Shown: positions 1,528 to 59,418 of the stretch, piece after piece
Layout: each line of letters begins with the position of its first letter
How positions within the stretch are numbered: position 1 is the stretch's first letter
NCBI GenBank assembly: GCA_963751345.1
Contig: CAVVUS010000022.1
Coordinates: 64,001 to 128,000 of the forward strand
From: an uncultured Chloroflexia bacterium
GTDB taxonomy: Bacteria; Chloroflexota; Anaerolineae; B4-G1; SLSP01
Direction: 5' to 3'
DNA: 64,000 nt
Position numbers and translations under genes: made by a program
The notes under the pieces: model-generated
The model's input: only the letters and a program-made list of their open reading frames with translations
What the model was told of the DNA's origin: nothing
The model's database searches: none

Positions 1528-1603
1528 TGGGGCCGAGGACAAGAATCCATGATCTCGGGCAGGCATCGACTATTGCGGCACACCACAGAGGAGCTGAGTG
1601 CAG

Positions 1604-23894: not shown

Positions 23895-23979
23895 GGTTGC
23901 CGCCGACGTGCTTTGCGCCTACAATGACCTCACTTGGGAATCAGAGACCAAGGCCATCTCATCATCACGAAAGGCAGCT

Positions 23980-30544: not shown

Positions 30545-30604
30545 TCCTTCTCCCCATTCTATGCTTCAGAACCCGGCCGCGGCCCATAGGTGACCGGACG
30601 CACC

Positions 30605-32699
30605 TCACACCCAGAGAAACACCGGCGCAGGTACGCTTTCCGCAATCCGGGCGCTTTGCGCCCGCCACGCGTCGTGACTCGCAGCGACCAGCAAAGACGG
30701 CGTAGAGGACATCCACCGAGCTTCCGGTGGTGGAGCCGCGGTCACCGACGCTCCCTGGGCCGAAGCGTGAATCTCATCAATGTACACGGTGCCCTGCGAA
30801 GGATTGTCGGCGGGCCTGTCAAGAACGATGGCGTAGAACCGTACCGGGTAGTCTACGACGCCGTTATCCGGACCGTAGACGTGACCCGATGGCCAGCCTA
30901 GGCCAGGAGCCAGCTTTCCTGACATCTGCTGCCACCCCGCGCCACCCACGGATCCCAGATGCACCGACCAGACCTCATCCTGCGCATCGGCAATCCACAG
31001 GTTGAGATACTGTCCCGACCCATCGCCATAGACCCAGGCGCTGAAGGTGTCCGGCTGCCCACCGACCGCGTGAGGTTGCACGAAAACGACGTAATCGTCC
31101 GCCACATCGGGAAAATCGTACGTCAGCTTCCCGGCATATTGGCCGCCATAGACTTGGTCCTGGGTTTGCACAAAGTCACCATACGGTTGATCCCCCCGTC
31201 GCCACGTCCCCCATTGCTCGAAGCCCACAAGCGCCCCCGTCGGGACCGCCTCCGGAGGAGAGGTCGGGGTGGGCGTTGGCGGATTCGAAGTGGCGGTGGG
31301 TGGAGCCGGCGTAGGCGTAGGTGGAACCGGCGTCTCGGATGCATAGGGCACCGGCGTCGCCGTGGGCGGCTCAACTGTAGACGTAGGCATCGGCGTCTCG
31401 GTCGCCTTCCCGCCGCCCGCCGCCGAACTTGCGTCGGACGTGATGGTAGGCGAGGGGACCGCAGGCTCGGTCGCCGTCGCCGAGGGACGCGGTGTCGAGG
31501 TCGCTACGGTGACGGGCGTCGGCTGAGCCGGAGTGGGCACGACTCTCGGTGCTGATCCCACCGGATACGTCGGGCGCCGCAAGCCACGGCGTCCAGCTCG
31601 ACGGGAGGCCAAAATCGACGATGCCGGTCAGTGCCAACACTGCCACCACTCCGACGCCGCCAAAAAGGACGACGGCCATGCCAATCGCCGGTATCCAGAG
31701 TGGGATTCGGCGGCGTGGCTCGCTTCTGGAGCCCGCCGACAAGGGGCCGTACGCTGTCGTCGCTATCGCCGGCCCTGTCGCCTGCGACGGCGGCATCATC
31801 GCGGTTCTCCCGTGGCCGGCAACGGCGGCTTCCTGGGGGGAAGGCGTGTAGTCTCCTCTCCCACCCCGCGCCCCGGGAACGTAGGCCAGCGCCTGCGCCA
31901 TCGCAGCAGCCGATTCCCAGCGCTTGGTTCGCGCAAGCTCCATCGCACGTTCAATTGCCGAGGCCGTCTGCGGAGAGACGCCAGGGGCTACGGACCTTAA
32001 CGGCGCAAACTCCTCCGGTGCGGCGATGCGCATCGTGGCCGACAGCGGTGCCTGACCGGTCAATGCGTGGTACATCGTGGCGCCCACGCTGTACAGATCG
32101 CTCCGGGGCTCCGTGTGGCCCGCCGAGACGTCGTATTGCTCGGGGGGCGCATACTGGGGTGTACCAACCCCCCGAACCGCCGTCCTCGTCCGGGGATCGT
32201 TCGGATTCCAAAGCTTGACCAACCCAAAATCGACCAGCACCGCATTCCTGTCGGGGCCGATGATGATGTTCTGCGGCTTGATATCACGGTGGATCACGCC
32301 CTGGCCATGGCAGTACGAAAGCGCCTCGAGCAATTGGCCGGACCAGGCGACAACCTGTGGCTCCGGGATCGGTCCCACCTGCTTGATCAGATCCGCCAGG
32401 CTCTGACCCTCGACATACTTCATCACCAGGTAGACAGTTCGGCCCTCGTGAAAATAGTCGGTCACGCCGACAAGATGTGGGTGGCTGAGGCGGGCAAGAA
32501 CCGTGGCCTCTTGCTGGAACTGCATCTGGAGATCGCGCAGGGCCTCCGTATCGAGATCTGGCTGAGCGACCATCTCCTTCAACGCCACGAGCACGTTGAG
32601 GCGCATATCCCAAGCACGGTAGACGGCGCCCATGCCTCCCCGACCCAATTGTGATACCACTCGATAGCGGTCTTGAAGTATGTCGCCCGGATTTAGCAT
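30605..32699 (-). CDS. Membrane Hanks-type Ser/Thr kinase with CBM11/FlaA-like ectodomain, frameshift near 31570
   Basis: LGRGGMG, VALKE, HRDIKPQN, DFG, TM segment; ORF 30605..31612 supplies a PT-rich stalk and a beta-sandwich (AWVYGDGSG...GWQQ...VYIDEI). Confidence 0.86.
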
Positions 32700-32780
32700 G
32701 GTGCCCCCAATCGTAAGAACTAACTGGCCCGTGTTGCCGTCAGCGACGGCCCCGCCCTGGATGACGCAGTGGCACGGGGC

Positions 32781-34769
32781 CTACTGTGCTTCCTGCGCAA
32801 TCTGCACGAGTACCACCGAGATATTGTCATACCCGCCGGCCTCTTTCGCCAAAGAGACCAACTGATCGCACGCAGCTTGAGGTGAGGCGGCTTCACGCCA
32901 CACCTGCCAGATCACGTTGTCCAGCACCATATCGCTGAGGCCATCCGAACAGAGCAGAATCGCCTCGCCGGGTGACAGGACGACGTCGAACAGATCCATC
33001 GCCAGATCCGGTGTATCCCCCATCACCCTGTAGATGACACTCTTTTGGGGGTGGTGCCGTGCCTCCTCCGGCGTAAGCTGCCCAATCTCTATCAGGCGCT
33101 GAACCAGCGAGTGGTCGGTCGTGATCTGCTGAATGGCCTGGGGCTTGAGCCAGTAGGCCCGGCTGTCGCCCACATTGAGAACCGTCGCCGCACGCCCCAC
33201 GATGAGCGCCATCACGAGGGTGGAGCCCATATCGTTGGATGCAGCCTGCCTTTCGTCGAAGACGGCCTGGTTAGCCGCCTTGGCGGCACGGGCCAGCCAC
33301 GCCTCGGCATCCAGCGCCTCGCCGGACGACGCTACACGGCGCAGGTCATCTGCATACTTGGCTATGGCCTCGACAGTAGTGTGGCTGGCGACGTCTCCCG
33401 CGGCGTGCCCGCCCACTCCATCGGCCACCACGAAAGCACCCACCGATAATTTCGGTGGTTCGCGTTGAGCGGCGCTCGTCTCCGTGAGGTCAATCACTAG
33501 GACACTGTCCTCGTTGAGCTTGCGGACGTGCCCCACATCCGTCCGCTGGCCGACGATGAACCGGGTGGGCTCGTGTTGCACCTGCTGTTCGCGTGCCTGT
33601 TCCAGCGCCACGGCAAAATCCCCGGCCCGGAGGAGGCCGTGCGACTGCAGGACCTGCGACAGCAGCCGCGCCACAGACTCCGGCAGCATCGCCTTGGTCT
33701 GAGACCGGGCGGCGGCGTCCTGCCCATCACTGCCGGTAGCCAGCATCGACAACATTTGCGCAAGCTCCCGCACATTTGCCGCAACTCGGGCTACACGTCC
33801 ACCGTTTCCCTCGGCAGGTATAAACGAGACCCCACCGAAACACAGCCAGCGAGCTTCATCGCCATCTACGATCGCGTCATCCAGCGAGATACGATCGAGA
33901 ATCACCTCATGATCGTGAAGGTACGCCAGGCCATGTGCCAGGGAGACGCCCCAGTCCAGCACCGCACCTATGGGTTGAGGTCGATCGATCTGTGAAGCCA
34001 GGGGATGCCGGATAATCGGCTCTATCTGAAAATACCTCGGCTGGCCAAAGGAAGTCTCGGTAAATACGGCCACGGGGGTGACCACGGCCCGGTGTGCCAG
34101 CTGCCCACTGAGCAGTTCTGCGGTAGCTGCAAACACCTGGGGGTCAAGCGCCTCGCGTGCCAGCAGGGTCGGGGGAGAAGACGTGGGCTCCGGCAGCTTT
34201 GCACCACATCGACTGCAGAATTGCTTCTCGCTCCCTTCAGCCGGCGCATAGCACCGCTCGCATAGGGTGAGCGACGATGTCGCCTTGACTTCGTAGACCG
34301 TACCACCGGCGGTGGAAGCTCGCATCTTGAGGATCACGAATCTTCCCTCATCCAGGACCGTACCTTTGGGGAGCGTGTCACTATCAGCAGCACGAGGGCT
34401 GCGACCGGCCTGGGGGCGTGGTGTCCGTTCGAGCCGGTTACGCCTGCGCTGGCGGCCCCGAATCAACAGAAAGACGCCGATACCCGTCACAACGAAAAGC
34501 AAGCCTCCTGTACCCGCCAACAGGATCGGCGTTATCTGGGTCGAGCTGAATGCCGCCAAACCACCATCGTTGCCGGGTAGAAGGATTCCTGCCGGGGTCG
34601 GACTACCCAGTGGAGACTGCATGGGCACGGGAGAGATCAGAGATGACTGCCCCGCACTGCCGGGCGGGCCCGGCAAATTGAGATCACAGGCCAGTAACAG
34701 CAGAAAGGCCCCCAGCCCTCCGAGCATGAGCGTCGAACGTCGCAGAAGCGTTGTGCGTCCAGGGAGCAT
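32781..34769 (-). CDS. PP2C/Stp1 phosphatase fused to lipobox/TM, zinc ribbon and degenerate kinase-like domain
   Basis: RKLNED, VADGVGGH..G..AS, MGSTL, NVGDSRAY, LCSDGL, GGYDNIS; N-terminal LLLAC, a TM helix and CERC...CSRC. Confidence 0.88.
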   Translation of the reverse strand: MLPGRTTLLRRSTLMLGGLGAFLLLLACDLNLPGPPGSAGQSSLISPVPMQSPLGSPTPAGILLPGNDGGLAAFSSTQITPILLAGTGGLLFVVTGIGVFLLIRGRQRRRNRLERTPRPQAGRSPRAADSDTLPKGTVLDEGRFVILKMRASTAGGTVYEVKATSSLTLCERCYAPAEGSEKQFCSRCGAKLPEPTSSPPTLLAREALDPQVFAATAELLSGQLAHRAVVTPVAVFTETSFGQPRYFQIEPIIRHPLASQIDRPQPIGAVLDWGVSLAHGLAYLHDHEVILDRISLDDAIVDGDEARWLCFGGVSFIPAEGNGGRVARVAANVRELAQMLSMLATGSDGQDAAARSQTKAMLPESVARLLSQVLQSHGLLRAGDFAVALEQAREQQVQHEPTRFIVGQRTDVGHVRKLNEDSVLVIDLTETSAAQREPPKLSVGAFVVADGVGGHAAGDVASHTTVEAIAKYADDLRRVASSGEALDAEAWLARAAKAANQAVFDERQAASNDMGSTLVMALIVGRAATVLNVGDSRAYWLKPQAIQQITTDHSLVQRLIEIGQLTPEEARHHPQKSVIYRVMGDTPDLAMDLFDVVLSPGEAILLCSDGLSDMVLDNVIWQVWREAASPQAACDQLVSLAKEAGGYDNISVVLVQIAQEAQ

Positions 34770-36720: not shown

Positions 36721-37903
36721 TCAGGGGATCTTGGCAAGGCTTCGCGGCAATCCTACCAGGAGCGCGACCGGCCCCAAGCAGAGCAGCCACATCGCTGCCT
36801 GCAGGTCCACGCGCTGGGCGATCACTCCCAATGCCCACGGCAACAGGGCTCCCACTAAGCCGAAGACATTGTACACCGCAAGCAGGGTGCCGCTTCGCCC
36901 GGGCATCGTCGCGTAGAGTCGCGCTTGGAGGATCGAGTACCATCCGGCATTGAAGAAACCAAGGAGGGCCAGCACCCCGAGCTTCGCCCCAAACGAACGC
37001 AGCCCGAGAAAGGCGACAAATAGGACAAGCTCAACTACGGCGCTCAACCGTAGATACCGGATGCCATCCACGTGGTCGAGCAGGCGGATCAACAGGAAAT
37101 CACCCAGAAGACCTACCCCGGTCCACACCGCAACAGCCATGGAAGCTTGCGCGGCAGAAGTCCCACCGACGTCCACGAAATAGAGCGCTAGAAATCCCAG
37201 AAGGACGTCCAGCATCAGGTCAGAAAACTGCAGCAGCACCAGCCAGCGCAGCACCTCGCCACGACGTAGCGCCGACGGCACCGCCTTCAGACTCTCGATC
37301 AAGCCTGGCTGCGCCTCAGCAGCTGCGGCAGGACCCTCAGGCCGGGACGTCACCGGGGGACGAGATCTCCAGGCCAGGCCCAGCATCACGACCGCTACCA
37401 CAGAAGTCGCTGCAAACATCGCGCGCCAGCCCAAGACTCAGCGCTGCCAGACCTCCCAGGGCGAGAGGGCCCAGGACTACACCAAGGGACCCCGCAAACG
37501 TCCAGCGGGCCATGTTCTTCTCCCGCTGTAGTGGGTCGGAATCCATCAAGGTTGCCTGGGAGAGGCTCACAAATGCACCCGAAGCAGGGCTGAGCATCGC
37601 GAAACTGACCAGCAGCCATCCATAGCTCCTGCTGGTGCTTACCAGGAGCAGGGCCAGTGCGAAGATCAGACCACCTCCGAGGATCAGGGCCCGACGCCGC
37701 CAAACATCCCCCAGGATACCGAAGATAGGTTCGGTGAGGCCCGACACGATGCGTGGAAGCCCCAACAGGACCCCGATCTGGGCATACGTCAGCAGAAGAT
37801 CCCTGCGCAGGAGAGGCCAGGCGGCCTCCCGCGACCCGTAGACAAACTCGTCGAGGAACTCAATGGCCAGGAGGACGATTAGGAACCGGGCACCCGTGCC
37901 CAT
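36721..37903 (-). CDS. MFS transporter, frameshift near 37430
   Basis: Two hydrophobic half-ORFs; motif A-like GILGDVWRRR. Confidence 0.82.
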
Positions 37904-37979: not shown

Positions 37980-39262
37980 CTACTCGTAGTCGGTATCGAC
38001 CCACTCGAATTCGTAGTCGGCGATCTTCACCGTATCGCCCTCTTGGACGCCCGCATCGCGCAAAGCAGAGATCACGCCCTGGTGATCGAGGTAGTTGTGA
38101 AAACGCATCAGCGCCTCGTAGTACTCGGTCCGGGCTCGGGCAGCCGCACGCTCGATCCTCCCACCCACGACACGCCACGTGTCCGTCACCCTCCTGGACA
38201 ATCCGAAAGCCCTCGTCATCGAGCGACGGGCGCACTACCACCGGCGTCGTTCGCTCCAAGACTGCCTCGGGGGCCTCCTGAACCATCTGGTAAGCCAGAC
38301 CCATCAACTGGCGTGTGTTCTCCCGCGTGAGACCCGAGATGGCAATCACCTGATCATACCCCAGCTCGAGCAGCACGGACTTGTAGGCGGGGACCATGTC
38401 CCGAACGCCCGGGATGTCGAGTTTGTTGATCGCCACGATCTGCGGCTTGCCTATGAGCCCGTGGCCGAAGTCCTTCAGTTCTTGGTTGATCGCTTCGAAG
38501 TCTTCGATCGGGTCGAGCGTGCTGCCATCCAGAACGTGAATCAGCACGCGCGTGCGCTCGATGTGTCGCAGGAACTCGTGGCCCAACCCCTTGCCCAAGC
38601 TGGCACCCTCGATAAGCCCGGGCAGATCTGCCATAACGAAGGTCTCGTTTGATCCCTAACGCGACAACCCCCAGGTTAGGCTGCAGGGTGGTGAAGGGAT
38701 ACGGCGCAATGTTGGGCGTGGCTGCCGTCGTCACAGAGAGCAACGTCGATTTCCCCGCGTTGGGCTTCCCGACAAGGCCGACGTCAGCAAGCAACTTGAG
38801 TTCCAGCCGGAGCGATCTCTCCTCGCCGGGATCGCCATTCTCGGCGATGCGCGGCGCTTGGTTGGTTGAGGTCGCGAAGCGCGCGTTGCCGCGCCCACCG
38901 CGCCCGCCAACGGCGACGACGGCCCGCTGGTCGGGTTCCGTCAGATCCGCTACCACCGCCTCGGTCGCCTCATCGATCACCAATGTGCCCGGAGGCACCG
39001 GCAGCAGCAAGTCCGCGCCGCCACCGCCGTGCATCGTCTTGATCAGACCCGGCTGCCCATCCTCAGCCGCGAACTCCTTCTGATGCGCGAAATGATAGAG
39101 CGTATTGAGATGCGGATTGACGAAGAAGACTACGTCCCCACCGCGACCACCATCGCCGCCTGAGGGACCGCCGAACGGAATATACTTCTCACGCCGGAAA
39201 GCGACGGCACCTTTGCCACCGTGTCCGGCCACGACATGAATCTTTACCTGATCATAGAACAT
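37980..39262 (-). CDS. obgE: GTPase ObgE/CgtA, two +1 frameshifts (~38650 and ~38190)
   Basis: [68 protein letters not shown]-terminal [16 protein letters not shown]. Confidence 0.95.
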
Positions 39263-39402: not shown

Positions 39403-42400
39403 CTAACGCGACCCCAGTACGTTGTGCAAAGTCTCGCAGGCCGGGCACCCACCGCCCGGGCGGATGATGGCAAACCCATCCTGGGGATCGGTGCCGTACC
39501 GTACGAAGTCGATATTCCATACGATAATGGTCCGCACCATCCCTGTGTTCACGCTCAACTGTACAGCTTCGGCGAGCCACGCGGCCTGCTCGGAGTTATC
39601 CGTACCACGAGCCCAGGCGAACTGATCAGAGAACGTCGGCACACCCTCCTGGGAGGCATATCCCATCTCGGTATAGAAGATCTGGCGAGTCCCGTGGAAG
39701 ATATTGTAGTAGAGCCGGGTCTGCGGGAGGAAGAACCACGAGTGATGGGTATCCGTTGGATTCGCGGGGTGACCGATGGTCGCCGAAGGCGACGTGGCGC
39801 CCGCATTGTGGTGCGCGCCGATGAAGTCCATACAATTAGCCGCACCGGCGGCGTAGAGTCCCTCCATCCAGGGCTGGTCGTCACAACCGTTGGGGCCGCA
39901 TCCACCAAACCAACCGGTGGGGGCGGGAGCGGCACTGATGACCGCCGTGCCGCCGTTGGCACCCTTGATCGCGTTGTACGACTTGCAGAGGAGTTGAGTA
40001 TAGGCTTGCGGGCTGATCATCCCAATCTGCCATTCACGGTCGATATTGGGTTCGTTCCAGACCTCGACGGCGTCGGCACCCGCTGCAGCCAGACCGGCAG
40101 TCCACGCAGCGAACTTATCCTCAAAGCCTGCTTGCGCGCTCATCGCAGCTCCGCCGATGGCGCTCAACTGGATCTTGAAGCCGGCGGCGTGTGCGGCATT
40201 GATGATGCCCGCTGCGCCCTCGCCATAGTGAACCTGGATCTTCACCCAGGTCATGCCGGCATAGTGCATCTTGTCGCCGTAAGGCATCCCCAAGTCCCGG
40301 ATATGCCCACCCAACTCAAATGAGCCACTGGCGACAGGCTGTGGCGCGACGACGGGTTGCGCAGCCGCGGGTGGCGGCGTCGCAGGCGCCTCGCCGACCT
40401 GGATCAGCACGTATGCGGAGCCACCCTGGATGCTCTTGCTTGCCGCGCGCAGTTCCCAGACGCTCTTGTAACTGCCGTCCCCGTCCGGCGCCGTCATATC
40501 GACACTAATGTCGACCTCTTCGCCGCTCTTGACAGCCCCGACCTCGACCTCTGCCTCGGCGCTCAGCTCATCGCCGCTGGCGAACGCCAGCACGGTCCCC
40601 TCGGGCCAGTCGGCGCTTCCCGAGTTCCGCATGCGCCAGGTCTTTGTGAACGCCTCGCCCTTATCGAAGTGCGTGTTATCTGGAACCGATACATCGGAAA
40701 CGTAACTGGCCTTGAGCGTCGCGTCGACCTCGGTCGAGGTCTCAGTCCCAGCATCGACCGGCGTCTCGCTATCGGCGCCGATATCGCCCTCTGCCACCGT
40801 GTCCGTAATCACCGGTGCGGGCGCAGACACGAGGATCTGCAGCGAGCCCTTATCCAGTCCCCCCACGGTCGCGGCAATCTGGTATGTCCCCGTGACCTCG
40901 GGTGCCGTCCACAGATAGTCTGGTTGGCTGAGCGTGGTTGTGGCCTGAGTCGGCAGGCCTGTCGGCCCCGTCACCTGCCACGCGACCTCGGGCAAGACAG
41001 ACGCCGTGCCACTGCCGACAGTCTGGAGAGAGGAGAGTGCTGGAATCAGCCCCGCGACGTTCCCAGGATCAAGGAGGTTTCGCAACACCGCACCACCAAG
41101 TTGGTAGCGCGTCGACATCTCCATACGGGCGAGGAGCCATTGAGGTGTTCCCAGCCAGTAGTGCTGATTACCGATCGTCACGCTGTGTTGCCTGGGTCGT
41201 AGCATCGTTCTCGATTTCGGCGCCGTCCCCCAGGCTGAGGCTCACCTTCGTGCCCGGCAGCACGCTCTCCGTCAGCGTCTGCTGCGCCCTGAACCTCCCC
41301 AAGCGAGGCCAGCACGGCATCTACCGACAGAACCTGATCTCCGTCTGTAGAGAGTGTCGAGTAAACTGGCACGAACTTGTGCCGGTCAACCTGCGTAACG
41401 GCCCATGAGACCAAACTGTTCGACATCGCCACCCGGCGTATAGGCCGAGGGTGCCAGAGGCATCACGACGCGGAGTTGGTCGACGGCAGCCCCCAGGGCC
41501 GCCCAATCGTAGCCACCCGTATCCCACGTCCCGTCGGCTGCCTGCTCTGGCGCATCTACCACCACGGCCAGATCAAGCCCGGCCGCGCCAAACGCAGCAC
41601 CCAATTCACGGATGAACTCACTATAGGCCGCACGATCCTGAGGGGGTACCTGTTGGTAGTCCACGACCAGGCCCGGATAGCCTCCGTCCTGAACGAGCGA
41701 CAGCAGGTTGGCAACGTGGGCGGACCTATCCGTATCCAGCGCGACCATATCACTTACCAGTTCCCAATTGGCCTCACGTCCGGGCAACCAGTTGCGCACC
41801 ATCGGCACCACGAGCGTCTCACCGCCCGCCGAGGCAGCGGGAAGGTCGTCAAGCGTGCCCGTCGTGCCTCCCATCGTCCCAATGAGAACGCCCGGCACGT
41901 CGGCCTCCCCGATCGCGGGGTCCAGCCCATCGGCGGGCCACGTCTCTACCTCAGTCACGATATGCTGCACACTCGACGTGCTTTGCATCACGATCACCGA
42001 TGCTGGAAGCGCGATCGACCTGGGAGACCAACACCTCTCCAGCTCGGTCAAGTTGCGTAGGCAGCCACTGCCAGGTCGCACCATCCCACGCGTAGAGATC
42101 CAATGTGTCCCATGGCTCCGACTCGTTGGGGATCACCACCGTCATGATCCCGCCTACGGGATCCTTTGTCTTCACATCGATGGTGTAGTAAGGGCCCTTG
42201 GGTTCCAGGTAGTCCGGGACTGCCTCGACAGCGCTACTCAAGGCATCGGGCACAGAGCCGGCCACGAAATCGGCACGCGGGACCGAGCCAAGCTTGATCC
42301 GAAGCCGCCCCGTGGCATCGGCCGCGCGAGAGACGGTCAAGCCGTCGGGATGGGCCACGGAAGTTGTCGCATCGTCCAGTACCGTATAGCCACCCCCGCC

Positions 42401-42928
42401 CAACCGTGAGGCAAGCGAGACTGGGGGCAGGAATAGGAACACGACAACCAGAAGGGCGACGACACCCGCGATAGCCCACCATCGTTCCTGCAGGAAGGAT
42501 CTGACTCCTGACAAGCCGGCACCGTCAGTCTCTCGCTTGGGACGACGAGCCGTCTCCAGCTCCGCGATACTCACCAAGGTAGAGGCCGGCGCGGGATCCG
42601 GGGCAACCGCGACCGTGGGTTCTTTTGAAGGCGTGACGGCGAAGGCCACCTCGCGCAACGCCTCGGTCTTCCGCTTCTGCGACGGGAGACCCATCCTCCA
42701 TCTCGTCCGCCGACGGCACAGACACGGGTTGGGGGTGGCGGGGCAAGTTCCGCGTCCGCAGGTACTTCGGGTTCAGCTTCGAGTCGGGTCGTAGTCGAGT
42801 CGGCCCCGGCTTCAGTATCCGCGGACGTCCCGTCCGGCGACGGCTCGCCCGCGGTCGGTCTTGGCTGGCATCATCTCAGGTTCTGGCTGCGATTCGACGA
42901 CTTCGTTTGGTTGATATTCGTCGCTCAT
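39403..42928 (-). CDS. Large membrane-anchored multidomain glycoside hydrolase (GH18-like + NBR1-Ig-like + GH39/GH5-like), several frameshifts
   Basis: GGAGGT RBS with ATG at 42928. Joined ORFs 41951..42694 (TM), 41386..42084 (GYPGLVVDYQ...GYDWAALG), 41178..41432 and 39403..41205 (VSDVSVPD...FTKTWRMRNSG..W; EVWNEPN; YTEMGY). Confidence 0.72.
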
Positions 42929-43132
42929 TCATACCTCCGGTTCGGGATTGTCTGCTGAGGCGGGAACCATCCAAGCAGACTGAGCTGTCAGCGTCCCACG
43001 ATGCCACGCGGGAACATATCCCGCGATAAGCATAGGCTGGGGCAATGTGGGAGAGCCAAACATAAATCTGATGGCGCGAACAATCTGCATTCTATCATAG
43101 GACAGAATACTGACAAGCGACGGAGAACAGGG

Positions 43133-46100
43133 CTACTCCACTTCCCAGAGCCGGCCCGAGGGAAGTCGCATGAAAAGAACGGGACTCTCGACCCCCGGGA
43201 GATCGGCGCTGAGAAGCGCGTCGCGCGCCTGATTGAGGGCACGATCTGCCATGCCGTGGCGGGCGAGGCCGTCATAGAAGGCCTGGACGATGCGCTGGGC
43301 CGAGCGCATCTGGACGCGATTGCGCATCGCGACGACCGCCGGGACCCCTGCCTCGACCAAGTTGACGGCGAGCCCCGCCAATGCGTGACCATCTGGGCCG
43401 ACGGCGCTCTGGCAGACCGACAGGTAGACTAACTGGGGCTGTCCCCCCTGATGTGCCAACATGCGGCAGAGCAAATGGCCCGCAATGGCACGGGTGTTGC
43501 CGTGGGCATCCTCGAGGAGTAGATCCATCCGCTCCTGCCGGGCGTTGAACCGGCCGTGGCCGACAAGGTGGAGCCAGTGGTATCCCTCAATCATTGCGCG
43601 GCTGAGGGCCTCCAGCGTGATCGGTGGCGGCAGGAAGTCGAGCCGTATCTGATCGGGGTCTATACCCGAGAAGGCCCGGGCCAGCAGATACTTCTCCATC
43701 TTTACGTCAAGAGGCGGGAGATCATATCGCTCGGCGAGATCACCGGGATTCGCAATGGCACCGAGCACGCGGATAGGCCGGTCCACCGTGGGTGCTCCCA
43801 ATGGCTTCTCGACAGGCAGATAGCGCGAGAAAGGCGTCGCCTCGCACGCAGACAACATCACCTCGTCATCGTGAAGCAGCTCCCAGGGAAGACGTTGGAG
43901 CACCGAGACGTCATCATCGATGCGTAGCCGGATCCGCCGCAAAGCTCCCTGTTGTTGGGCCTGCCCACGCGCAACGTGCCACGCCTTACGCACCGCGCCA
44001 TTTCGGAAGAGGCTCTCGAACAGGTAATGGCCGTCCGCCACAAGATCACCTGTCGGAGACCAGTCAACGATGGCCCGCGACAGCTGACCGCCGGAGAAGA
44101 CCTGGCCGCCGTTTAGCGTCACCTCCACGCTGTAGTCGCGAGTTCCATGCCCGATCCGTATCTCCAGATCGACGGTGGGTATGGCCAAAGAGCTGCCGGC
44201 CCACTCCAGGGCTCCGCCGCTCTCCGAAAGGATCCGAAGGGTGCCCGGCACCCGCTTTGCCGTCTCTTTGGCCACCGGAAGATAGATCGTCTCCTCGCGA
44301 CGATGAGGCTCGCCATTGCGGTCGAGGTAGTCGATCTGGAACCGGAGGGGGACGGAGTCGCCGTGGGCCAGCGGCTTGACGTCGAGCACTTGCTCCTCGC
44401 TTTGCCCGACGGGAAGCGCGGCCAACGTCTGGGTCTCTGCAATCTGCCCCTCGAACTGCTCGCCTGCGACGCGGATGATCAGGTTGCGTGCCAGACCGTA
44501 CCCGCCGTTACGAATGACAAGCCGCAGGCGGGACCACGCATCGAAGACTAGGCCCGCGTGCTGCGCGTCCACCACAATCAGCGGCAGTCCGAAGACCTGT
44601 GCATAACGCCTGCGCGCCTCGGCGGCCCTCTCGATGGCGGACACCGAGTCAAAGAGATGTGCTGCCGTCGCCCAGGCCTGCGCTCGCACGTCGGCGCTCG
44701 ACTCATCATCGCCCAGCTGCTCGGCATGGCGACACCACGCTTCAGCCGCACGACGCGGGTTGTTCTGGGCCTCCCAGGTCCGGGCAGCTTTTGACCACCG
44801 CCCGGCGCTTTCGTGATCCTCGGCCGAAACGGGATAGGTCAGACAAGTCACCTCGCCGGTACAATCTGACCACGATAGCATAAGGTCCCTCAGCATCCCC
44901 CTCTGTCAGCGCTGGAGAGGTCTTTGTCTCCTGGGTCATCGTGTGCTGCCACAGGAGCTTGCCGGTATGCAGATCGATGCCGTAAAGGTGCCGGTCGTTG
45001 CCCGCGACACACAGGACGTTGTCGGCCACGACCGGTGCGGCGGTGACGTAGGCCCCGGTATGGAAGACCCACTGAGGTAGGCCATCCTCAGGGCGCAATG
45101 CGTAGACGCCATCTTGCGCGCCGACATAGAGCCATTGGCCATCGGTCACAGGTGTGGTTAGCCGCTTGCCGCGCGGCCCAACGGGCGATTCCCACATCAG
45201 ACGGCCATCCTGGCGCGCCAGCGCCAACACGATTCCGGAACTGAGAACTGCGACGACAGTCTCCCCAATCACAAGGGGCGTCTGGCTGATCTGCACGCCG
45301 GATAGAACCCCCTCGACCTCATAGCGCCACAGGATATCGCCATCCAAGGTCAGGGCCACCAATGAGGGAGCGCGACACGGGACGTAGATGGAGGTTGCAT
45401 CACACGCGGGGGCTGACAGCGCGACATCGACCGGCAGGGATACCGCTGAGAGCTGTTCGCCATCCCTCGCATCCAGGATGAGCACAGAACGGCTGTTCCC
45501 GGTTACCGCTGCCACGCTCCCCAACACGGCCGGCGCGGAAATCTGGTGCACCTCGAGTTCGGTGCTCCACAAGATTCGGCCGGAGCCGTCCACCGCGATC
45601 AGGGCACTCTCACCCGGCAGCCGCCCCAGGCTTGGGAGGCTGACCAACACACTATTCCCGTCGGTGCGCACCATCCCGCCGACGATTGCGTTAGGGAAGC
45701 GCTGCTCCCATATCACCGCACCCGAGGTCACGCTGAGTGCTCGCAGAACGCCGCCCGGCGATCCCCGCCCTGACTCTTGGGATGCGATGAGACATACATC
45801 GCCCAGAACTACCGGCGCCGCCATCGGCTGCCCCGGCAGCGCGTATGACCAGACGGGGTAGGGATCCTGAACAGGGAGAGATGCCGGAGACGCCTCTTTG
45901 GGCGTTGCCCACACCGTGGACGCAGTTTCGGTTTGGCGCCGGACGATAGGAGGTGGCATTGGCTTGAGTTGGAGATCGTCCCGGACCTGGGGAAGGTAGG
46001 CAACGAGCTCTGCGATTCGCTGCCGTCTCTCAAGGTAATCGACCATCCCCCTGACGAGATCGAGTTTGTTCGCAGTACCGGGCAGGGTTTCCGCGTCGAT

Positions 46101-46238
46101 TTCGAGGTCGAAACAAAGCGTTCGCAGCTCGCTGATGGTGAACCGTTGCACCAGGAGCCGACGCAGATAAGTTAGGTAGCCTCGATCGGTTCGTCCCGCA
46201 GTATCAGACATGGAAAGCTTCTCACCAGTAAATGTCAC
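43133..46238 (-). CDS. EAD7/death-like domain + PQQ-type beta-propeller + helical/Ig-like region + CHAT (caspase-like) protease, +1 frameshift near 44870
   Basis: N-terminal LRRLLVQRFTISELRTLCFDLEID.ETLPG...LERRQRIAEL; repeated LYAL...G..W blades; CHAT motifs LPWELL, LHLVGHG, YLSVCQS, GVPAVVAM. Confidence 0.8.
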
Positions 46239-46475
46239 TTAAAACGAGTATAGGCCCATTCAGGAATTGCGCAATGCCGGCGGTGAAACAGGTGTGTTTC
46301 AGAATCGGGACAAACATACCGGCTCAGATGCCGGGCACCAGACGCCGGTCGCCCCGGAAATGAAACACACCCGTCACATCCGGACGCATAATCCGGGCTA
46401 CGGACTGTGGTATACTATATGAGGTTTGGAAAAGGTTGTCCAGTCAACGGAACTAAGGTTGATATAGAGTTATAG

Positions 46476-47253: not shown

Positions 47254-47679
47254 ATGCAGTCGACAGAAGACGCGGGCCACAACGGCCTGGAACGGGTAGC
47301 ATGCGGGACGAGCTTCGCCCGCCGGATGATGGGGGCTATCGGCTTCACGTTGCTAGGGGTTGCCGTGGCCGTACCGGCCATATGTCTCTATCTCGGACGA
47401 AGAGAGCGCATCCGTGGTCGATCCTCGAAGTCCCAACCCTCAGACGATGCGGCTGCGCCCGCCGAGCCTATTTTGATCACGCTTGTCCCCGACTCCGCCG
47501 CAGACACGCCTGCCGCCGAGCCGATGCCACCCTATGTCGCCAGCTCCGAGCGCGACAGGTTCCACGTTCCCTCCTGCCGTTGGGCCAGGCGAATCCGGCA
47601 GGAGCATCGCTTGGTCTTCGAACACCGTGAGGACGCGATAGCAGAGGGGTATGTGCCCTGCGGCACCTGCAGCCCTTAG
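47254..47679 (+). CDS. Small membrane-anchored protein with C-terminal Ada-like metal-binding domain
   Basis: AGGAGG RBS, TM helix, YVAS...FH.PSCRWA..I...F..RE.A...GY.PCGTC.P. Confidence 0.8.
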   Translation: MQSTEDAGHNGLERVACGTSFARRMMGAIGFTLLGVAVAVPAICLYLGRRERIRGRSSKSQPSDDAAAPAEPILITLVPDSAADTPAAEPMPPYVASSERDRFHVPSCRWARRIRQEHRLVFEHREDAIAEGYVPCGTCSP

Positions 47680-53253: not shown

Positions 53254-53306
53254 AGACACACGAACCTTCGCTAGGCTTCGGAAGCCTAGCGAAGGTTCGT
53301 GTGTCT
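53254..53306. repeat. Perfect 26-bp-arm palindrome containing two REP-like units
   Basis: agacacacgaaccttcgctaggcttc-g-gaagcctagcgaaggttcgtgtgtct, between convergent cysK and the GH35-like gene. Confidence 0.85.
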
Positions 53307-55833
53307 ACACGCCGGCCATCTTCTCGGATAACCGCGCCAGCAGCGCACCGGCCTCCAGTCGTGCCACGCCTAGGCCGGGCTTCGCCCCCCGGGTCCACTG
53401 GGCAATAAGCAACTCGTTGGGTCCGGTGCGACGCAGCACGCCGTCGGGCAGCCAGAGCCTGCGCTGAGGCTCTTGGGGGTACGCCGCTCGCCCGATCAAC
53501 ATCCCGTTCAGGTATACGTAACACCTGGCGGGGGTCTGCTCCAGCACGAGATAGAGAGGCACCTCAATATCCCGCGGCAGGAAGAGATCGAAGCGACTGT
53601 GATGCCATGTGATGTCCGCGGCTCCCTCCTCGCTGATAAGGGCCCAATCGGCAAATCCGTAGAATCCCTGGACCCGGATCTCTCCTGACAGCCCCGCTCG
53701 CACACACCACCGCGTCACCGGCTCTCCATGGAGGTGACACGAGACGAGGCCATGGGGTTCGGAAGCGGCATCCCAGGGCGTCGCTCTCCCCTGGTTCTCG
53801 ACGAGAATCGACAGGACATTGTGGGGCAACAAGTGTCGCGAGGGCAGCGGCAGTGTCTTGGGTACCGCCGGTCCGAACTCGGGCGCAGAGTTGAGCGAAG
53901 CGATATGGGCACCGTTCAGGAAGAGATCACAGGCATGACGACACGCCAGCGTCACAGCCACGGGCGCGCCCCCGAAATGAGCCCGATACCATACGAAGCC
54001 ATAGTCAATGCCCTGGCGCTCCATAGCAGGCGCCTCACCAGGTACCATCGTTCGCCAGTCCTGATCGTCATAGTCGGGCAGGGCCTCCGGCGCTCCGGGT
54101 CGTGAAGCCCAGGTGAGCACGGGCACGGTGACCGGCTCAGGCGCTGGCCACGTAATGGGTGCCAGCCAAGTATGTGGGTCGCTACCACGCCAGGGCCCCC
54201 AGCGGTACCCGAACCCTCTGCGCGCTGCAAGGAACCGATACGAGCCATCCCGCTGGGGCAACACGAAGTCGGGGCCGATGACGACGCCACGCGCCGGCTC
54301 ATCGGCCGTCGTAGCCCAGGATGCCGGGTAGGCCGGCGTCTTGCGCCACGTGTCATCCATCGGCCATGTACGTGCCGAAAGATGCGGATCGAGGGCCAGC
54401 AACTGCAGGGTAGCCTGCTCACCGTCCAGCACGACCGACCCAAGCCTGCCTGGATCGAAGTGGACCAGAAGCCCGCCCTCCAGCCGCTCGACGTAAGCAC
54501 CTCCTCGGCGGTGTCGCGGGCGGAAGTCCGGCGGCAGGAGTACCTCGCCGCCTTCGTCGTTTTGGAGCACGAGCAACTCCCGTCCGGCCACGATAGTGTG
54601 CAGTATGGGCTCGAGGCTCGTGCCGATCAGGCGGCTGTCAGCAGCCGGCGGCTACGGCAACCGCCAGTTAAGAGGTATGACCACGGCCGAGCCCGCGCCG
54701 ACGGCAATATCCTCCACGACGACCGCGTCATCACCGGCGCCCAGCGACACAGCGACAAACGCCCCACCGTGACCACCCGCGAGGAACACGACCGCCCCGT
54801 CAGGGCCGCTGCGCGCGCCAATCAGATGTTCCGCAGGTGTAGCGTGCACATCGTAGGCAGGGCCGGAGTCGGCGAGGACGTCGCCCATCGTCTCAAGGGA
54901 CAGCGCGACACGGCGGGCGCCGTAGTAGGCCTCCCCCAGCGCCCCGCCCTCCCCGACGAGGGTGCCGGCAACCGGAGTCGCAAGCGGGCCGGCGGTGCCC
55001 CACCATCCCCACCGGGTACCGGTGTGCGCTGGCGTAAGCGCGGAGGCCGCCATTCCGTGGGCGAACGGCGTCGTGATCGACAGCCGTAGGTCCGCTTTGC
55101 GGGTGCCGTCAGGGGTCTGTGTCTGTTGGACGCTTGCCCCGAGTGAATCGCCGGTCACGTCCACCAGCGCGAGCCCGCGGACGTCGAGAATGGCGTCACC
55201 AGCCGGATCTACCACCAGCGGTAGCAGGTCTTCGCCCCAGGCCAGGTCGGCCGCTTCGGGCACGACACAGGGCACGCCTATGCCTCTCTCACGAAGAAGG
55301 CCCAGGAGCGGCCCCATCCAGGGAGTTAATGATCGTCCGTTGGTGCAGATGCCAGGATCCACGATCGTAGCGATGAGATTCGGGCGATTCCGCAGGAGCG
55401 GGAGTAGCCGGTCCCACCAATCACTGAGATGTCGTACAAGCGCCGGCGGAAGCTCGTCGGATAGACGAGTCCCGCACACCCCCTGCATGCTCGGTAAACG
55501 ATGGATCCAGGCCGGAATCCCCCCGCCATCGAGAGCCGCTCCAATCCAGGGACCGACGTGCGGTATGAGCCAAAGCCCGGCCTCCTCGACCTCGTCGAAG
55601 AGATGCGGGAGGTCGCGTGGGCCGGTGAAGTCATGGAAACCCACGTCCGGGCTGTGGTAGGCCCAGGGGATGGGGATCACGATGGCGTTGAACCCCGCCA
55701 TACGGACGCGATCCAACATGGGACGCCACAGATCGGGATGGGGAAGACGGAAGTAGTCGAGGACGCCCGCCTGAATCAGCGCGGGCTTACCGTCGATGCT
55801 GATGGCCTCAGGCGTGACGATGACGTTTGGCAA
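53305..55833 (-). pseudogene. GH35 beta-galactosidase-like gene interrupted by an in-frame TAG (54652-54654), catalytic motifs degenerate
   Basis: DYFRLPHPDLW, GFNAI..IPW.YH, DFTG.RDL, GG.P.W; C-terminal jelly rolls (GFVWYR, LFLNG, VENQG, YLNG.LIGR). ORFs 54652..55833 and 53305..54591 are in the same frame. Confidence 0.7.
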
Positions 55834-55846
55834 GGGCCACAGCCGA

Positions 55847-56759
55847 TCAAGCTTCAGAGAGCGCTACCGCGATCTTTGCGGCAACCCGCGCATTCTGCAC
55901 CAGGAGGCTCTCGTTCGCCCGTTTGGTACGCGCTTCGCTGAGCTCAACCATCCGGGCGAGGATGAAGGGGGTCAGCGCCTTTCCCGTCACACCCGTGGCC
56001 TCTGCCTCAGCCACAGCCCGCTCAATCATGGGCTCCACAACATCCGCAGGCACCTCATCTTCAGCCGGGACCGGAACTGCGACGAGCAAAGCCTGCGGCA
56101 GGCCGAGTGATCTCTGTGACCGGAAGATCTCGGCCACATCCCCCGGGCCGCCCACCATCAGATCCACGGCAAGGCCCGACCTGCGGCTGTAGAACGCCGG
56201 AAACTCCTCGGTCCGCCACCCGATCACGGGCACGCCCCACGTCTCCAGGGTCTCCAGCGTGCGTGGCAGGTCCAGGATCGACTTGGCCCCGGCGCATACC
56301 ACCACGATAGGAGTTGACGCGAGGACCGGCAGATCCGCGGAGACATCCTCGGGATGGCCACGGTGTACCCCACCGATACCCCCGGTGGCAAAAACACGGA
56401 TTCCGGCCATCCGGGCCAGATGGGCAGTTGCCGCCACCGTCGTCCCTCCGTGAATGCCGCGCAGTTTGGCCAGGGGCAGATCGCGAATGCTCACCTTGAC
56501 GGCCGCGTGGCCGCCGGCCAATGCATCGATCTGGCATATCGTTCAGCCCAATGTGAGGAGCTCCCTCCCAGATACCAATCGTCGCCGGGCAGGCATTCTG
56601 GGCTCGGATCGCCCCTGTCATAGCCTGGGTGACGGCTACGTTAGCCGGGTAGGCAAACCCGTGGGTGATGAGAGCAGATTCGAGGGCGACCACCGGTCGG
56701 CCCTGCGCAATCGCGTTACTCACCTCTCGGCTGAACGTCAAGACATCGCTCTTGACCAC
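55847..56759 (-). CDS. psuG: Pseudouridine-5'-phosphate glycosidase, +1 frameshift near 56535
   Basis: VVALESALITHG, KVS.RDL, TTVAAT, FATGGIGGVHRG, DVSADL, AGAKSILD, GKALTPF.L. Confidence 0.92.
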
Positions 56760-57996: not shown

Positions 57997-59418
57997 TCAA
58001 TAGGCGCCGTCGCGGGCCAGAACCTGGGGTATAGTTCGCACCAAGATGCTCAAGTCCAACCATGGGGACCAATGCTCAATGTAGTATAGGTCCAGCAGCA
58101 CCATCTCGTCAAACGACAGTTCGCTGCGACCACTCACCTGCCATAGTCCGGTCATACCGGGAGGCACGGTCAAGCGCTGCTCGTGCCATGGCTGGTATTG
58201 CGCCACTTCATCGGGAATAGGTGGACGTGGCCCGACCAGACTCATTTCACCCCGCAGAACATTGATTACCTGGGGCAACTCATCTATGCTGGTCTGGCGC
58301 AAGAACCGCCCCACCCTGGTGACCCTTGGATCGTCGCGCATCTTGAAAAGAGGGCCATCCGCCTCATTGTGCTCCAGCAACTCTCCCAACTGCAACTCGG
58401 CCCCTACCCGCATCGTGCGGAACTTGTAAATGCCGAAATGCTCGCCGTTCTCGCCGACGCGCTCCTGTATGAACAATACGGGGCCGGACGAATCCAGCTT
58501 GATGGCGATAGAGATGAACAAGAATAGAGGCCACCCGACGATCAGCAGGAGAATGGCTCCGACCAAGTCGAGGACCCGCTTGAACGCTAATTCCACGTGA
58601 CTGAATGCGATTTCCTTTATTTCGATCAGGGGTAGACCTCCGAGATCCCCCACTTCTACGCGGCTCAGGCTCAGTTGGAAGAGGTCCGGCACAAGGCGAG
58701 CCTTGACGTCACGCCGAGCACACGTTCGAAGAACGCTGAGGATTCTGCGATGATAGTTCCACGGAAGCGTGATAATCACCTCATCGACCTCGTGCTCGTC
58801 GATAAGGTGCGAGAGATTGTCGACCGAGCCAAACCCACAGAAACGCCCAATCTTGCCCTCACCTTTGTCGGGGTTATCATCGACGTAACCCACGATATCG
58901 TAACCCAGGTCGCGTCGCGCCACGACCGTGCGCATAACGCGTCGCCCGACCTCACCTGCACCGACAATGACCACACGTTTGACGCCAATGCCTCGTCTGC
59001 GTAGATGAGCCTGGATCGCCATCGCGATCGAGCGATCCAGCGATATGAGCATAACCATGAACACGCCGCTCTCGAAGAGCAGAAGTCGTGAGTATACCAG
59101 GGGCCGAACTACAAACGACCAGGCAAGAGCGGCAACCAGCGTGATGACGACAGCGTTGATGATCTCGAAGACGTGCTCGAGCCATACCTGCCCACGCCAG
59201 TTCTTATATGACTTACTGACCCACAGCACCAAGGGCACCCCAAACGAGAAGAGCAGGTTGAAGGGCAAATATGCGCGATAGGGCGCGTCAAAAGCGACAT
59301 CAAGAAACCACTGTAGGCGATAGCGCAACAGATAGGCCAATGGCATGGCCAGGTTGATCATGGCCACATCCAGAAGGATGACCCACCAGGGAGCATAGTC
59401 ACGCCGGTTGGGGGTCAC
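57997..59418 (-). CDS. Polyprenyl-phosphate sugar phosphotransferase (WcaJ/CpsE-like priming glycosyltransferase)
   Basis: Four N-terminal TMs, IVGAG Rossmann-like domain, KRVLD, KFRTM, DPRVT.VG.FLR.TSIDELPQ, PGMTGLWQVSGR. Confidence 0.92.
   Translation of the reverse strand: MTPNRRDYAPWWVILLDVAMINLAMPLAYLLRYRLQWFLDVAFDAPYRAYLPFNLLFSFGVPLVLWVSKSYKNWRGQVWLEHVFEIINAVVITLVAALAWSFVVRPLVYSRLLLFESGVFMVMLISLDRSIAMAIQAHLRRRGIGVKRVVIVGAGEVGRRVMRTVVARRDLGYDIVGYVDDNPDKGEGKIGRFCGFGSVDNLSHLIDEHEVDEVIITLPWNYHRRILSVLRTCARRDVKARLVPDLFQLSLSRVEVGDLGGLPLIEIKEIAFSHVELAFKRVLDLVGAILLLIVGWPLFLFISIAIKLDSSGPVLFIQERVGENGEHFGIYKFRTMRVGAELQLGELLEHNEADGPLFKMRDDPRVTRVGRFLRQTSIDELPQVINVLRGEMSLVGPRPPIPDEVAQYQPWHEQRLTVPPGMTGLWQVSGRSELSFDEMVLLDLYYIEHWSPWLDLSILVRTIPQVLARDGAY

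Follow-up and report, generated by a model that had tools for sequence, protein, structure and literature searches.

The stretch analysed here, called the window throughout, comprises 64,000 nucleotides (nt) of contig CAVVUS010000022.1 (assembly GCA_963751345.1, positions 64,001 to 128,000 of the forward strand) from an uncultured Chloroflexia bacterium. The gene under study, referred to as the target, lies on its minus strand and appears as two overlapping open reading frames (ORFs) which, judged by comparison with homologues, are one gene split by a single extra base. The product combines in one chain an N-terminal effector-associated domain (EAD) of the EAD7 family, a beta-propeller followed by helical and Ig-like units, and a C-terminal caspase-like CHAT protease domain. 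The gene and its parts are listed below, with lengths in amino acids (aa) and model confidence as the predicted local distance difference test (pLDDT).

43133..46211, minus strand: whole gene read through the break, 1025 codons plus stop (ATG at 46209-46211, stop at 43133-43135).
44742..46238, minus strand: N-terminal ORF, 498 aa.
43133..44896, minus strand: C-terminal ORF, 587 aa, with an ATG at 44896.
44866..44868, minus strand: frameshift site, one extra base at about 44867, within the last propeller blade.
45981..46166, minus strand: EAD7, residues 16-77 (Pfam PF19960, E 2.5e-16).
45861..45980, minus strand: linker 1, residues 78-117, variable and probably disordered (pLDDT below 50 for 88-112 in the homologue model).
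44837..45860, minus strand: eight-bladed PQQ/BamB-type beta-propeller, spanning the frameshift (PQQ_2, 107.5 bits, E 1.1e-30).
44591..44824, minus strand: helical repeat of five helices, SNAP/TPR-like (SNAP below threshold: E 0.0059, 16.5 bits against a cutoff of 25).
44270..44578, minus strand: Ig-like beta-sandwich of seven to eight strands, present in both models.
44177..44269, minus strand: linker 2, variable (low pLDDT, 29% mean identity).
44081..44176, minus strand: small beta unit of three to four strands directly before CHAT, common to paralogous CHAT proteins.
43202..43960, minus strand: CHAT (caspase-like) protease domain, Pfam limits (the model extends to about 43166-44077).
43556..43558, minus strand: putative catalytic His885, motif HLVGHG (H437 of the C-terminal piece).
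43412..43414, minus strand: putative catalytic Cys933, motif LSVCQSA (C485 of the C-terminal piece).

The two ORFs share an overlap of 155 nt, the C-terminal one being one base out of frame with respect to the N-terminal one, and reading through the break gives 448 + 577 = 1025 aa. The homologues place the start of the gene at ATG 46211 rather than at GTG 46238. A homologue search with the N-terminal ORF yielded, as longer relatives, 18 proteins of 1011-1096 aa at 40-65% identity, each of which holds the EAD7, PQQ-type and CHAT families together in one chain. Upon comparison of these full-length homologues to the window using tblastn, all 18 gave two abutting matches spanning the break: for 13 of them the first match runs to 44868 and the second resumes at 44866, the query residues following on directly, and for the remaining five the two meet within a few residues. 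Both halves align full length to the homologues, at 64% and 73% identity, with no stops besides the one-base break. In the last propeller blade of the model, strand 445-449 lies before this break and strand 454-459 after it. Since all 18 homologues bridge the break and since it falls inside a propeller blade, unlike a natural gene boundary, the two ORFs are assigned to one gene on these alignments, and the single polypeptide of about 1,030 aa called by the initial annotation is upheld. The same annotation had ascribed the split to an extra G near 44870. Its place (within about 5 nt) and its effect on the frame were correct, the G itself being one candidate for the extra base. Skipping 44867 or 44868 produces ...IVVDC..., and deleting the G in GTGG (44870-44873) produces ...IVSDC..., the frame being restored either way; in the alignment the junction reads ...GPYAIVV/DCTG..., and of the 18 homologues 14 have V ahead of the D, three have A, one has I and none has S. 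Two real genes, or programmed frameshifting, would instead supply an EAD7-propeller protein and a separate CHAT protein. The ATG at 44896 does open the second frame, and a 524-aa EAD7-propeller protein (P0041) exists in the protein collection. This arrangement is nevertheless extremely improbable, given that the break cuts the last blade, that the ORFs overlap, that the 18 long homologues and 7 full-length genomic loci of the family are single ORFs, and that no slippery motif is evident at ...GTGGTCAGATTG....

Breaks of this kind also occur elsewhere in the window, where at least 8 genes besides the target are interrupted by a frameshift or an in-frame stop (stretches 1598-4513, 12270-14208, 36721-37903, 37986-39262, 39403-42952, 53305-55833 and 55850-56759). 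They include a GH38 mannosidase, DnaK, an MFS transporter, Obg, a large membrane protein, a GH35 beta-galactosidase and an indigoidine-A-like gene. DnaK is cut into two frames between Pfam model positions 376 and 377, and the mannosidase is in three pieces; compared to intact orthologues, Obg is spread over three frames, and the MFS transporter and the indigoidine-A-like gene carry one shift each. The large gene directly downstream of the target has three shifts, and the beta-galactosidase a single in-frame TAG (54652-54654). All the well-resolved minus-strand shifts in the window are one-base insertions, the same type as that of the target. Because essential genes (DnaK, Obg) carry the same kind of break, the split of the target is most likely an assembly error, as far as the sequence can tell. 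An alternative genetic code, considered for the in-frame stops of the neighbours, was rejected as the stops follow no consistent pattern; the apparent in-frame TGAs at 41244-41388 arise because that stretch lies out of frame between two shifts. The assembly looks unpolished and error-prone, and any ORF-level finding in the window should carry that caveat. A genuine pseudogene, in which the frameshift is real and the gene decaying, would be in keeping with the source's own gene call, which stops in the shifted frame, and with a 489-aa protein identical to the N-terminal reading in the protein collection. The full-length alignment of both halves without further stops and the like damage to DnaK and Obg make such decay very unlikely.

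Pfam matches, AlphaFold2 modelling and fold searches confirm the domain order as EAD7, linker, 8-bladed PQQ/BamB-type propeller, SNAP/TPR-like helices, Ig-like sandwich, small beta unit and CHAT. The order is that of the initial annotation, to which the small beta unit is an addition. The whole-chain model is that of the closest full-length homologue, P0002 (1030 aa), used as a stand-in for the window protein and built from a 20-row alignment including both window pieces (mean pLDDT 80.1; predicted template modelling score, pTM, 0.52). From the N-terminus it displays four helices (10-76), then a disordered linker (88-112) and 33 strands (119-459); five helices (464-544) lead on to a beta-sandwich (550-652), and after a variable loop come a small beta unit (684-715) and an alpha/beta domain (717-1020). 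A second model, made from the window's own C-terminal 577 residues with an 11-row alignment, is weaker (pLDDT 68.6), yet its secondary structure is the same as in the P0002 model.

The EAD7 match to PF19960 scores 59.6 bits against the Pfam cutoff of 32 and covers model positions 1-61 of 62, in agreement with the EAD7-like N-terminus proposed initially. In the P0002 model this is a small all-helical terminal domain composed of helices 10-23, 26-35, 49-62 and 66-76 (pLDDT about 76-90), with the disordered linker after it. The death-like fold also ascribed to it was not supported, as the model has four helices, not six, and no bDLD family match was obtained; 'death-like' is weakened to an analogy and does not express membership. 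EAD1, EAD6 and EAD7 seem to be distantly related, the Death-like members being bDLD1/EAD3 (Kaur et al. 2020, PMC7159879); consistent with the kinship reported for EAD1 and EAD7, the EAD1 model cross-matched EAD7 arrays weakly. A complex prediction with two copies of window residues 1-85 gave scores of 0.00 and 0.02 against a mark of 0.42, which is evidence neither for nor against.

The 33 propeller strands fit eight blades. In a fold search with the P0002 model, 8-bladed BamB structures were best (E 1e-22 to 1e-17, template modelling (TM) score to target 0.57-0.79), and the designed 8-blade propeller Cake8 reached a TM-score to target of 0.84. The BamB equivalog TIGR03300 is not reached (125 bits against a cutoff of 285) and the target has no hydrophobic leader, so that the 8-bladed fold alone is common to both; the PQQ-dependent dehydrogenase family TIGR03075 is not reached either (47 bits against 480). 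The propeller also matches region 498-785 of the AfsK kinase model, at 50 bits against a cutoff of 1300. For the helical stretch, a protein atlas lead (score 0.85) points to a cluster with SNAP in 25% of its members. The Ig-like sandwich gave no match in the Pfam scan; its fold matches are TRAP-beta 8b5l_v (TM to target 0.51 over 121 columns) and, further, Fsx1, STAT and accessory domains of glycosidases, and its atlas leads are TRAP_beta and CARDB (scores below 0.9). Matches of paralogous CHAT proteins begin at about residue 684 of the query and thus include the small beta unit. No P-loop nucleoside triphosphatase (NTPase) module (NACHT, NB-ARC, nSTAND) was found in the chain by Pfam or in the model, and no SAVED domain. 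The absence of a signal peptide stated in the initial annotation agrees with a Kyte-Doolittle hydropathy scan, which found no N-terminal hydrophobic segment, no dedicated signal-peptide predictor having been run; we infer a cytoplasmic location.

The CHAT domain matches PF12770 with an E-value of 1.4e-28 and 100.6 bits against a cutoff of 24, over model positions 17-270 of 289. The second His of HLVGHG is presumed to be the catalytic one, after the motifs of caspase and CHAT proteins. His885 and Cys933 are invariant in all 11 aligned sequences of the C-terminal alignment and occur in at least 90% of the rows of the 20-row alignment; in the window C-terminal model the His lies within the core strand 431-441 and the Cys at the end of strand 479-485. 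In the fold search that model matches best to 8tl0, a solved filament of the SAVED-CHAT protease (E 7e-6 with probability 1.0; 18% identity over about 290 columns; TM 0.21-0.25). Further down the list are the anti-sigma factor DdvA and a Craspase chain. With a score above the Pfam cutoff, an invariant pair and a solved CHAT protease as best fold match, the C-terminal CHAT domain retaining both residues, as first annotated, is supported, though with low TM-scores. CHAT structures were reached by fold search only: against chains of the PDB, the single sequence of the C-terminal half gave a chance match alone (E 0.83), and an 11-sequence profile gave nothing at E of 1 or below. The CHAT domain also matches the NCBIfam model of HetF, a CHAT protease that acts in heterocyst development and cell division of cyanobacteria (E 4e-18). 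Because the score is 65 bits against a cutoff of 1200, this match reflects the common domain only.

A scan of genome contigs retrieved 74 loci, of which 12 belong to the target family (L001-L008, L010, L029, L034, L043) and 62 are non-family, paralogous loci. All family loci are from Anaerolineae, Anaerolineales or Thermoflexales metagenome-assembled genomes (MAGs), Anaerolineae being a filamentous group. The best of them is only 67% identical to the window protein, from which it follows that the window's species is absent from the scanned representatives. P0093, with 183 aa and 124 bits, is probably a fragmentary member of the family as well. Where the public records give a name, it is 'PQQ-binding-like beta-propeller repeat protein' or 'BamB', which misses the protease and adaptor parts; the family is present in public records but unrecognised there. 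Mean identity to the 18 homologues is 62% for EAD7, 59% for the propeller, 55% for the helices, 64% for the sandwich and 66% for CHAT, and falls to 13% and 29% in the first and second linkers.

The company kept elsewhere by the two terminal domains was surveyed separately for each. Non-family loci match the last approximately 345 residues only, at 31-49% identity, and 29 of the 62, chosen for complete ORFs, were scanned. The following 15 of them encode CHAT fused to SIR2_2:

L009, L013, L014, L017-L023, L028, L030, L031, L040, L046: CHAT-SIR2_2 loci.

The CHAT domain of these proteins is the closest paralogue of the target CHAT among the scanned loci (42-49% identity). The fusion, of about 680 aa, is common in Anaerolineae and was also seen in Bryobacter and Latescibacterota MAGs. 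CHAT is joined to a STAND NTPase with TPR or HEAT repeats in 4 loci (L011, L026, L045, L048), to an FGE-sulfatase domain in 2, one of which (L033) has EAD7 too, to CHASE2 in 1 and to PASTA in 2; in the remaining ones it is accompanied by HEAT repeats or stands without a further clear domain. In the fetched loci the EAD7 profile built from the family matches the family members, L033 and L047. The last two, L033:4731-6923 (CHAT-FGE-sulfatase-EAD7) and L047:9656-11146 (EAD7-CHAT), lie on different contigs of the same Chloroflexota MAG and form a natural candidate pair for EAD7-EAD7 coupling in trans.

The same EAD7 profile, run against 1.84 billion cluster representatives, retrieved 8797 proteins at E of 1e-3 or below and 2629 at 1e-10 or below. 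Partner domains were counted from Pfam scans of 147 new representatives among the best 150 of the 8797. The chains include nSTAND1 in 22 cases, other STAND or AAA-type NTPases in 10, Roc-COR in 4, CHAT in 7 non-family proteins and WD40 in 2; fewer have TIR, SIR2, PNP, SAVED, bDLD1 or receiver domains, and many consist of EAD7 only. The best profile matches carry 2-7 tandem EAD7 copies, and the proteins P0042-P0107 often hold arrays of 3-7 copies, which either stand by themselves or form the end of an nSTAND1 NTPase, in some cases one with SIR2_2 at its N-terminus. The combination of EAD7, PQQ_2 and CHAT was found, among the best 150, in the target family only, in 4 proteins:

P0040 (window's own product), P0018, P0009, P0124: target-family members in the best 150.

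The closest non-family EAD7 domains among the 147 belong to small single-EAD7 proteins, an EAD7-WD40 protein and receiver-domain proteins (57-63 bits) and point to no partner class. A word-based search with residues 10-100 returned, among proteins of near length, a single relative (524 aa) besides the window's own product of 489 aa and, among longer proteins, the two closest orthologues only; it named no lineage-specific EAD7 partner.

By their family matches, both terminal domains are akin to conflict-system modules. EADs are described as small, mostly helical adaptors with one copy on a core component and others on effectors; the copies are usually adjacent and sometimes elsewhere in the genome, and EAD7 is placed among the EADs that 'primarily recruit other effectors' (Kaur et al. 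2020, PMC7159879). EAD7 is also found among the N-terminal modules of STAND-FGS and TRADD-N proteins (Kaur et al. 2021). The reading that we favor, with about an even chance of being right, is that the target may be a CHAT protease that its EAD7 tethers, in trans, to NTPase hubs carrying the same domain, so as to form an effector arm of a conflict or programmed-death network. Through EAD7-EAD7 contacts the protease would dock onto hubs that carry EAD7 and whose genes lie in other parts of the genome; STAND NTPases bearing EAD7 in tandem arrays are the most plausible hubs. Binding of a protein or ligand, either the substrate or an activating or inhibiting signal, would fall to the propeller together with the Ig-like and helical units. 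Proximity or release would then activate the putative His/Cys dyad and lead to cleavage of target proteins, and the protein would be an effector arm of an NTP-dependent conflict network of multicellular bacteria that has become fixed at a stable chromosomal position. Recruitment in trans is pointed to because the EAD7 domains in the database, within the best 150 of 8797, are overwhelmingly on NTPase hubs or in arrays.

Several observations weigh against this reading. The window C-terminal model is of moderate confidence only (pLDDT 68.6) and its CHAT fold match has low TM-scores. The globular domains evolve at similar rates (55-66% identity), which gives no sign of an arms-race sensor; the sensor role assigned to the propeller by the initial annotation is accordingly reduced to an inference, the propeller being no more variable than other domains (59% against 66% for CHAT). 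Two family members do without EAD7: L004:1370-4204 has about 35 residues in its place and is syntenic downstream, with a different upstream gene, and L029:58-2949 has a zinc ribbon instead, in a different neighbourhood. The family core can therefore work without EAD7. PADLOC detected no system in the window, a marginal SAVED_CHAT match (E 1e-3) excepted. Among 56 ORFs scanned in the window there is no STAND/NACHT-type NTPase, gasdermin or other EAD, and the flanks of the 12 family loci hold no second EAD7. Finally, the target sits in a vertically inherited, housekeeping-type chromosomal block of Anaerolineae and not in a defence island.

That block runs from a beta-galactosidase through a cysteine synthase, a serine acetyltransferase-like gene, a 1142-aa histidine kinase, a small protein and a divergent HD-domain gene to the target, and continues with a large membrane-anchored N_BRCA1_IG protein of about 1170 aa, Obg, MFS, cyclophilin and PP2C. 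Across the family loci the histidine kinase is kept in 6 and the HD gene in 5, and of the 10 that have sequence downstream of the target, 8 retain the large protein there. Retention extends to Obg, MFS and cyclophilin, and the synteny persists down to 37-47% identity of the target. Such a setting would suit a domesticated regulatory protease with a housekeeping or developmental role in filamentous Anaerolineae, for example in cell division, filament or envelope biology, which might act on or with conserved neighbours such as the large downstream membrane-anchored protein. Besides the synteny of the histidine kinase, HD gene, large downstream protein, Obg, MFS and cyclophilin, this alternative can draw on the even conservation across domains, the lack of a PADLOC system, the match of CHAT to the model of the cell-division protein HetF and the loss of EAD7 in L004 with the rest of the protein kept. 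The similarity to HetF is at the domain level only, however, and the synteny spans tens of kb, so that being neighbours does not by itself indicate a functional link. SIR2, STAND NTPases and FGE-sulfatase are the fusion partners of the nearest CHAT relatives, and EAD7 otherwise occurs with conflict-type modules; there is also, as weak evidence, a promoter-like site between the target and the downstream gene. On balance, domestication is the strongest rival of the favored reading, though considered somewhat unlikely. Upstream of the target, a promoter-like site matches the consensus at 10 of 12 positions (46414..46442, minus strand, about 200 nt before the start codon); two such sites were found in the region where 0.8 are expected from shuffles, which is weak evidence too.

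The initial annotation likened the protein to an initiator caspase with its own propeller sensor. Taken in its strong form, this would be a self-contained sensor-protease in which the propeller senses directly, EAD7 self-assembles and activation proceeds without an NTPase. There is no NTPase partner near any family locus, and the persistence of the propeller-helical-Ig-CHAT core without EAD7 in L004 and L029 implies a functionally autonomous core. Cytoplasmic PQQ-type propellers are also known as a non-catalytic part of signalling proteins, as illustrated by the match to AfsK region 498-785. Against it, the propeller is not diversified, EAD7 in the best 150 of 8797 is mostly on NTPase hubs or in arrays, and the P0002 model, with its pTM of 0.52, is unreliable on autoinhibitory packing. 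We regard this form as unlikely. An equally doubtful idea is an NTPase-free, single-chain 'mini-apoptosome' as a core gene of filamentous Anaerolineae, where the propeller, aided by the Ig-like and helical units, would itself sense a conserved cellular or invader signal, EAD7 would polymerise or dock on multi-EAD7 scaffolds and so gather the protease domains, and CHAT would execute programmed death or filament severing.

The statement of the initial annotation that no NTPase, gasdermin or second EAD gene is adjacent is sustained over the 64 kb as regards STAND/NACHT-type NTPases, gasdermins and EADs; a probably ordinary MoxR operon with an AAA+ ATPase lies about 15 kb off. A six-frame search of the window with the family-built EAD7 profile matched the target alone, and no type III CRISPR genes were found in the window.

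The favored recruitment in trans can be set against several known systems. The NTP-dependent conflict systems are alike in having a terminal EAD fused to a caspase-superfamily peptidase and in their occurrence in filamentous or multicellular lineages including Chloroflexi (PMC7159879). The target differs from them by the propeller, helical repeat and Ig-like unit between EAD and peptidase, by the lack of a nearby VMAP, iSTAND, GAP1 or NTPase, and by its stable syntenic position. The terms 'PQQ' and 'BamB' are absent from the main text of that paper and from the checked parts of the main text of Kaur et al. 2021, and 'EAD7' and 'PQQ' are absent from two supplementary files of the former, further supplements of which may list the architecture. 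Two further papers name EAD7 in passing only. No description of an EAD7-propeller-CHAT chain was found among the papers listed by the literature searches, one of which is no clean negative as it listed 15 of 716 matching papers. Simple EAD7-CHAT proteins (P0141, 577 aa; P0098, 474 aa; L047, 496 aa) and the CHAT-FGE-sulfatase-EAD7 protein (L033/P0182) unite EAD7 and CHAT in one chain, like the target, but are devoid of its propeller, helical and Ig-like insert, and EAD7 may be C-terminal there. SAVED-CHAT (8tl0) and the type III-E CRISPR TPR-CHAT/Craspase (7zoq) came out best in the fold search with the C-terminal half. In both, a sensor or helical-repeat domain fused to the CHAT protease controls it, an arrangement like that proposed for the target. 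The target has no SAVED domain or CRISPR context, its similarity to them in sequence is marginal, and the TM-scores reach only 0.15-0.25. Matches to the HetF, BamB and AfsK models all lie far below their cutoffs, and the target is without a lipoprotein signal.

The Apaf-1/caspase-9 apoptosome unites an adaptor of the homotypic kind with a sensor built as a beta-propeller and a protease of the caspase fold. The target shares, by analogy, this logic of adaptor, beta-propeller and caspase-fold protease. It differs in being one chain, in having no NB-ARC/STAND NTPase and a PQQ-type instead of a WD40 propeller, and in that its adaptor is not a death fold. The protease of the bacterial CARD/gasdermin system is trypsin-like, unlike CHAT. 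A small helical adaptor is required for protease-mediated activation of the death effector in CARD-like/protease/gasdermin defence, which provides experimental precedent for adaptor-driven protease activation in bacteria (Wein et al., PMC10312443). Unlike in these systems, no gasdermin or NLR-like gene is adjacent to the target, and EAD7, with its four helices, is not a CARD.

Some neighbours of the target deserve a brief description. The downstream gene at 39403-42952 (minus strand; L001:7976-11497), co-directional with the target, encodes the protein of about 1170 aa; besides the Ig-like N_BRCA1_IG domain it has a tail at the N-terminus, a single hydrophobic segment and a region weakly similar to GH18. 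A fusion link between the two genes was considered because the EAD7-array proteins P0042 and P0043 carry N_BRCA1_IG, and was rejected: they have nothing else in common with the neighbour, to which they are 28-32% identical over about 85-110 residues, in the Ig domain only. On the plus strand, 47254-47679 encodes a protein of 141 aa that has a single hydrophobic segment and is rich in Cys towards its C-terminus (...FHVPSCRW...PCGTCSP). It is without a Pfam match and is kept beside the histidine kinase in L007 and L010; its Cys-rich motif resembles Ada-type zinc-binding domains. The operon at 23908-28788 (plus strand) groups a MoxR-type AAA_3 ATPase with GNAT, DUF58 and DUF4129 genes. Its ATPase cross-matches Pfam bpMoxR, the MoxR of MoxR-vWA-beta-propeller ternary systems, at 38 bits (cutoff 27) and AAA_3 at 210 bits; no vWA or propeller partner was seen, and the operon is probably an ordinary MoxR one. 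At 29165-34769 (minus strand), two Ser/Thr protein kinases, one probably frameshifted, adjoin the 662-aa PP2C phosphatase, which belongs to the conserved syntenic block. At 57997-60560 (minus strand), a sugar transferase (Bac_transf) accompanies a GT1/GT4 glycosyltransferase which cross-matches Pfam 'GT4-conflict' at 31 bits (cutoff 26) and generic models much higher; this is probably an ordinary polysaccharide locus.

Three features set the target apart from most predicted conflict genes: an adaptor, a binding platform and a protease reside in one chain, the gene is kept at a fixed position by vertical inheritance in a filamentous lineage, and the family includes natural variants devoid of EAD7 (L004, L029). 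Should the 'mini-apoptosome' idea be true, the family would represent a death switch of the caspase type that a bacterial lineage passes on vertically, and not a mobile defence gene. Should instead the favored reading of an EAD7-tethered protease recruited in trans be right, the family would offer a compact test case, in which L004 and L029, being without EAD7, could serve as built-in natural controls. The case would bear on the still unproven idea that EADs are small helical adaptors through which caspase-like proteases of bacteria are connected in trans to NTPase hubs, in the way that CARD and death domains work in animals.

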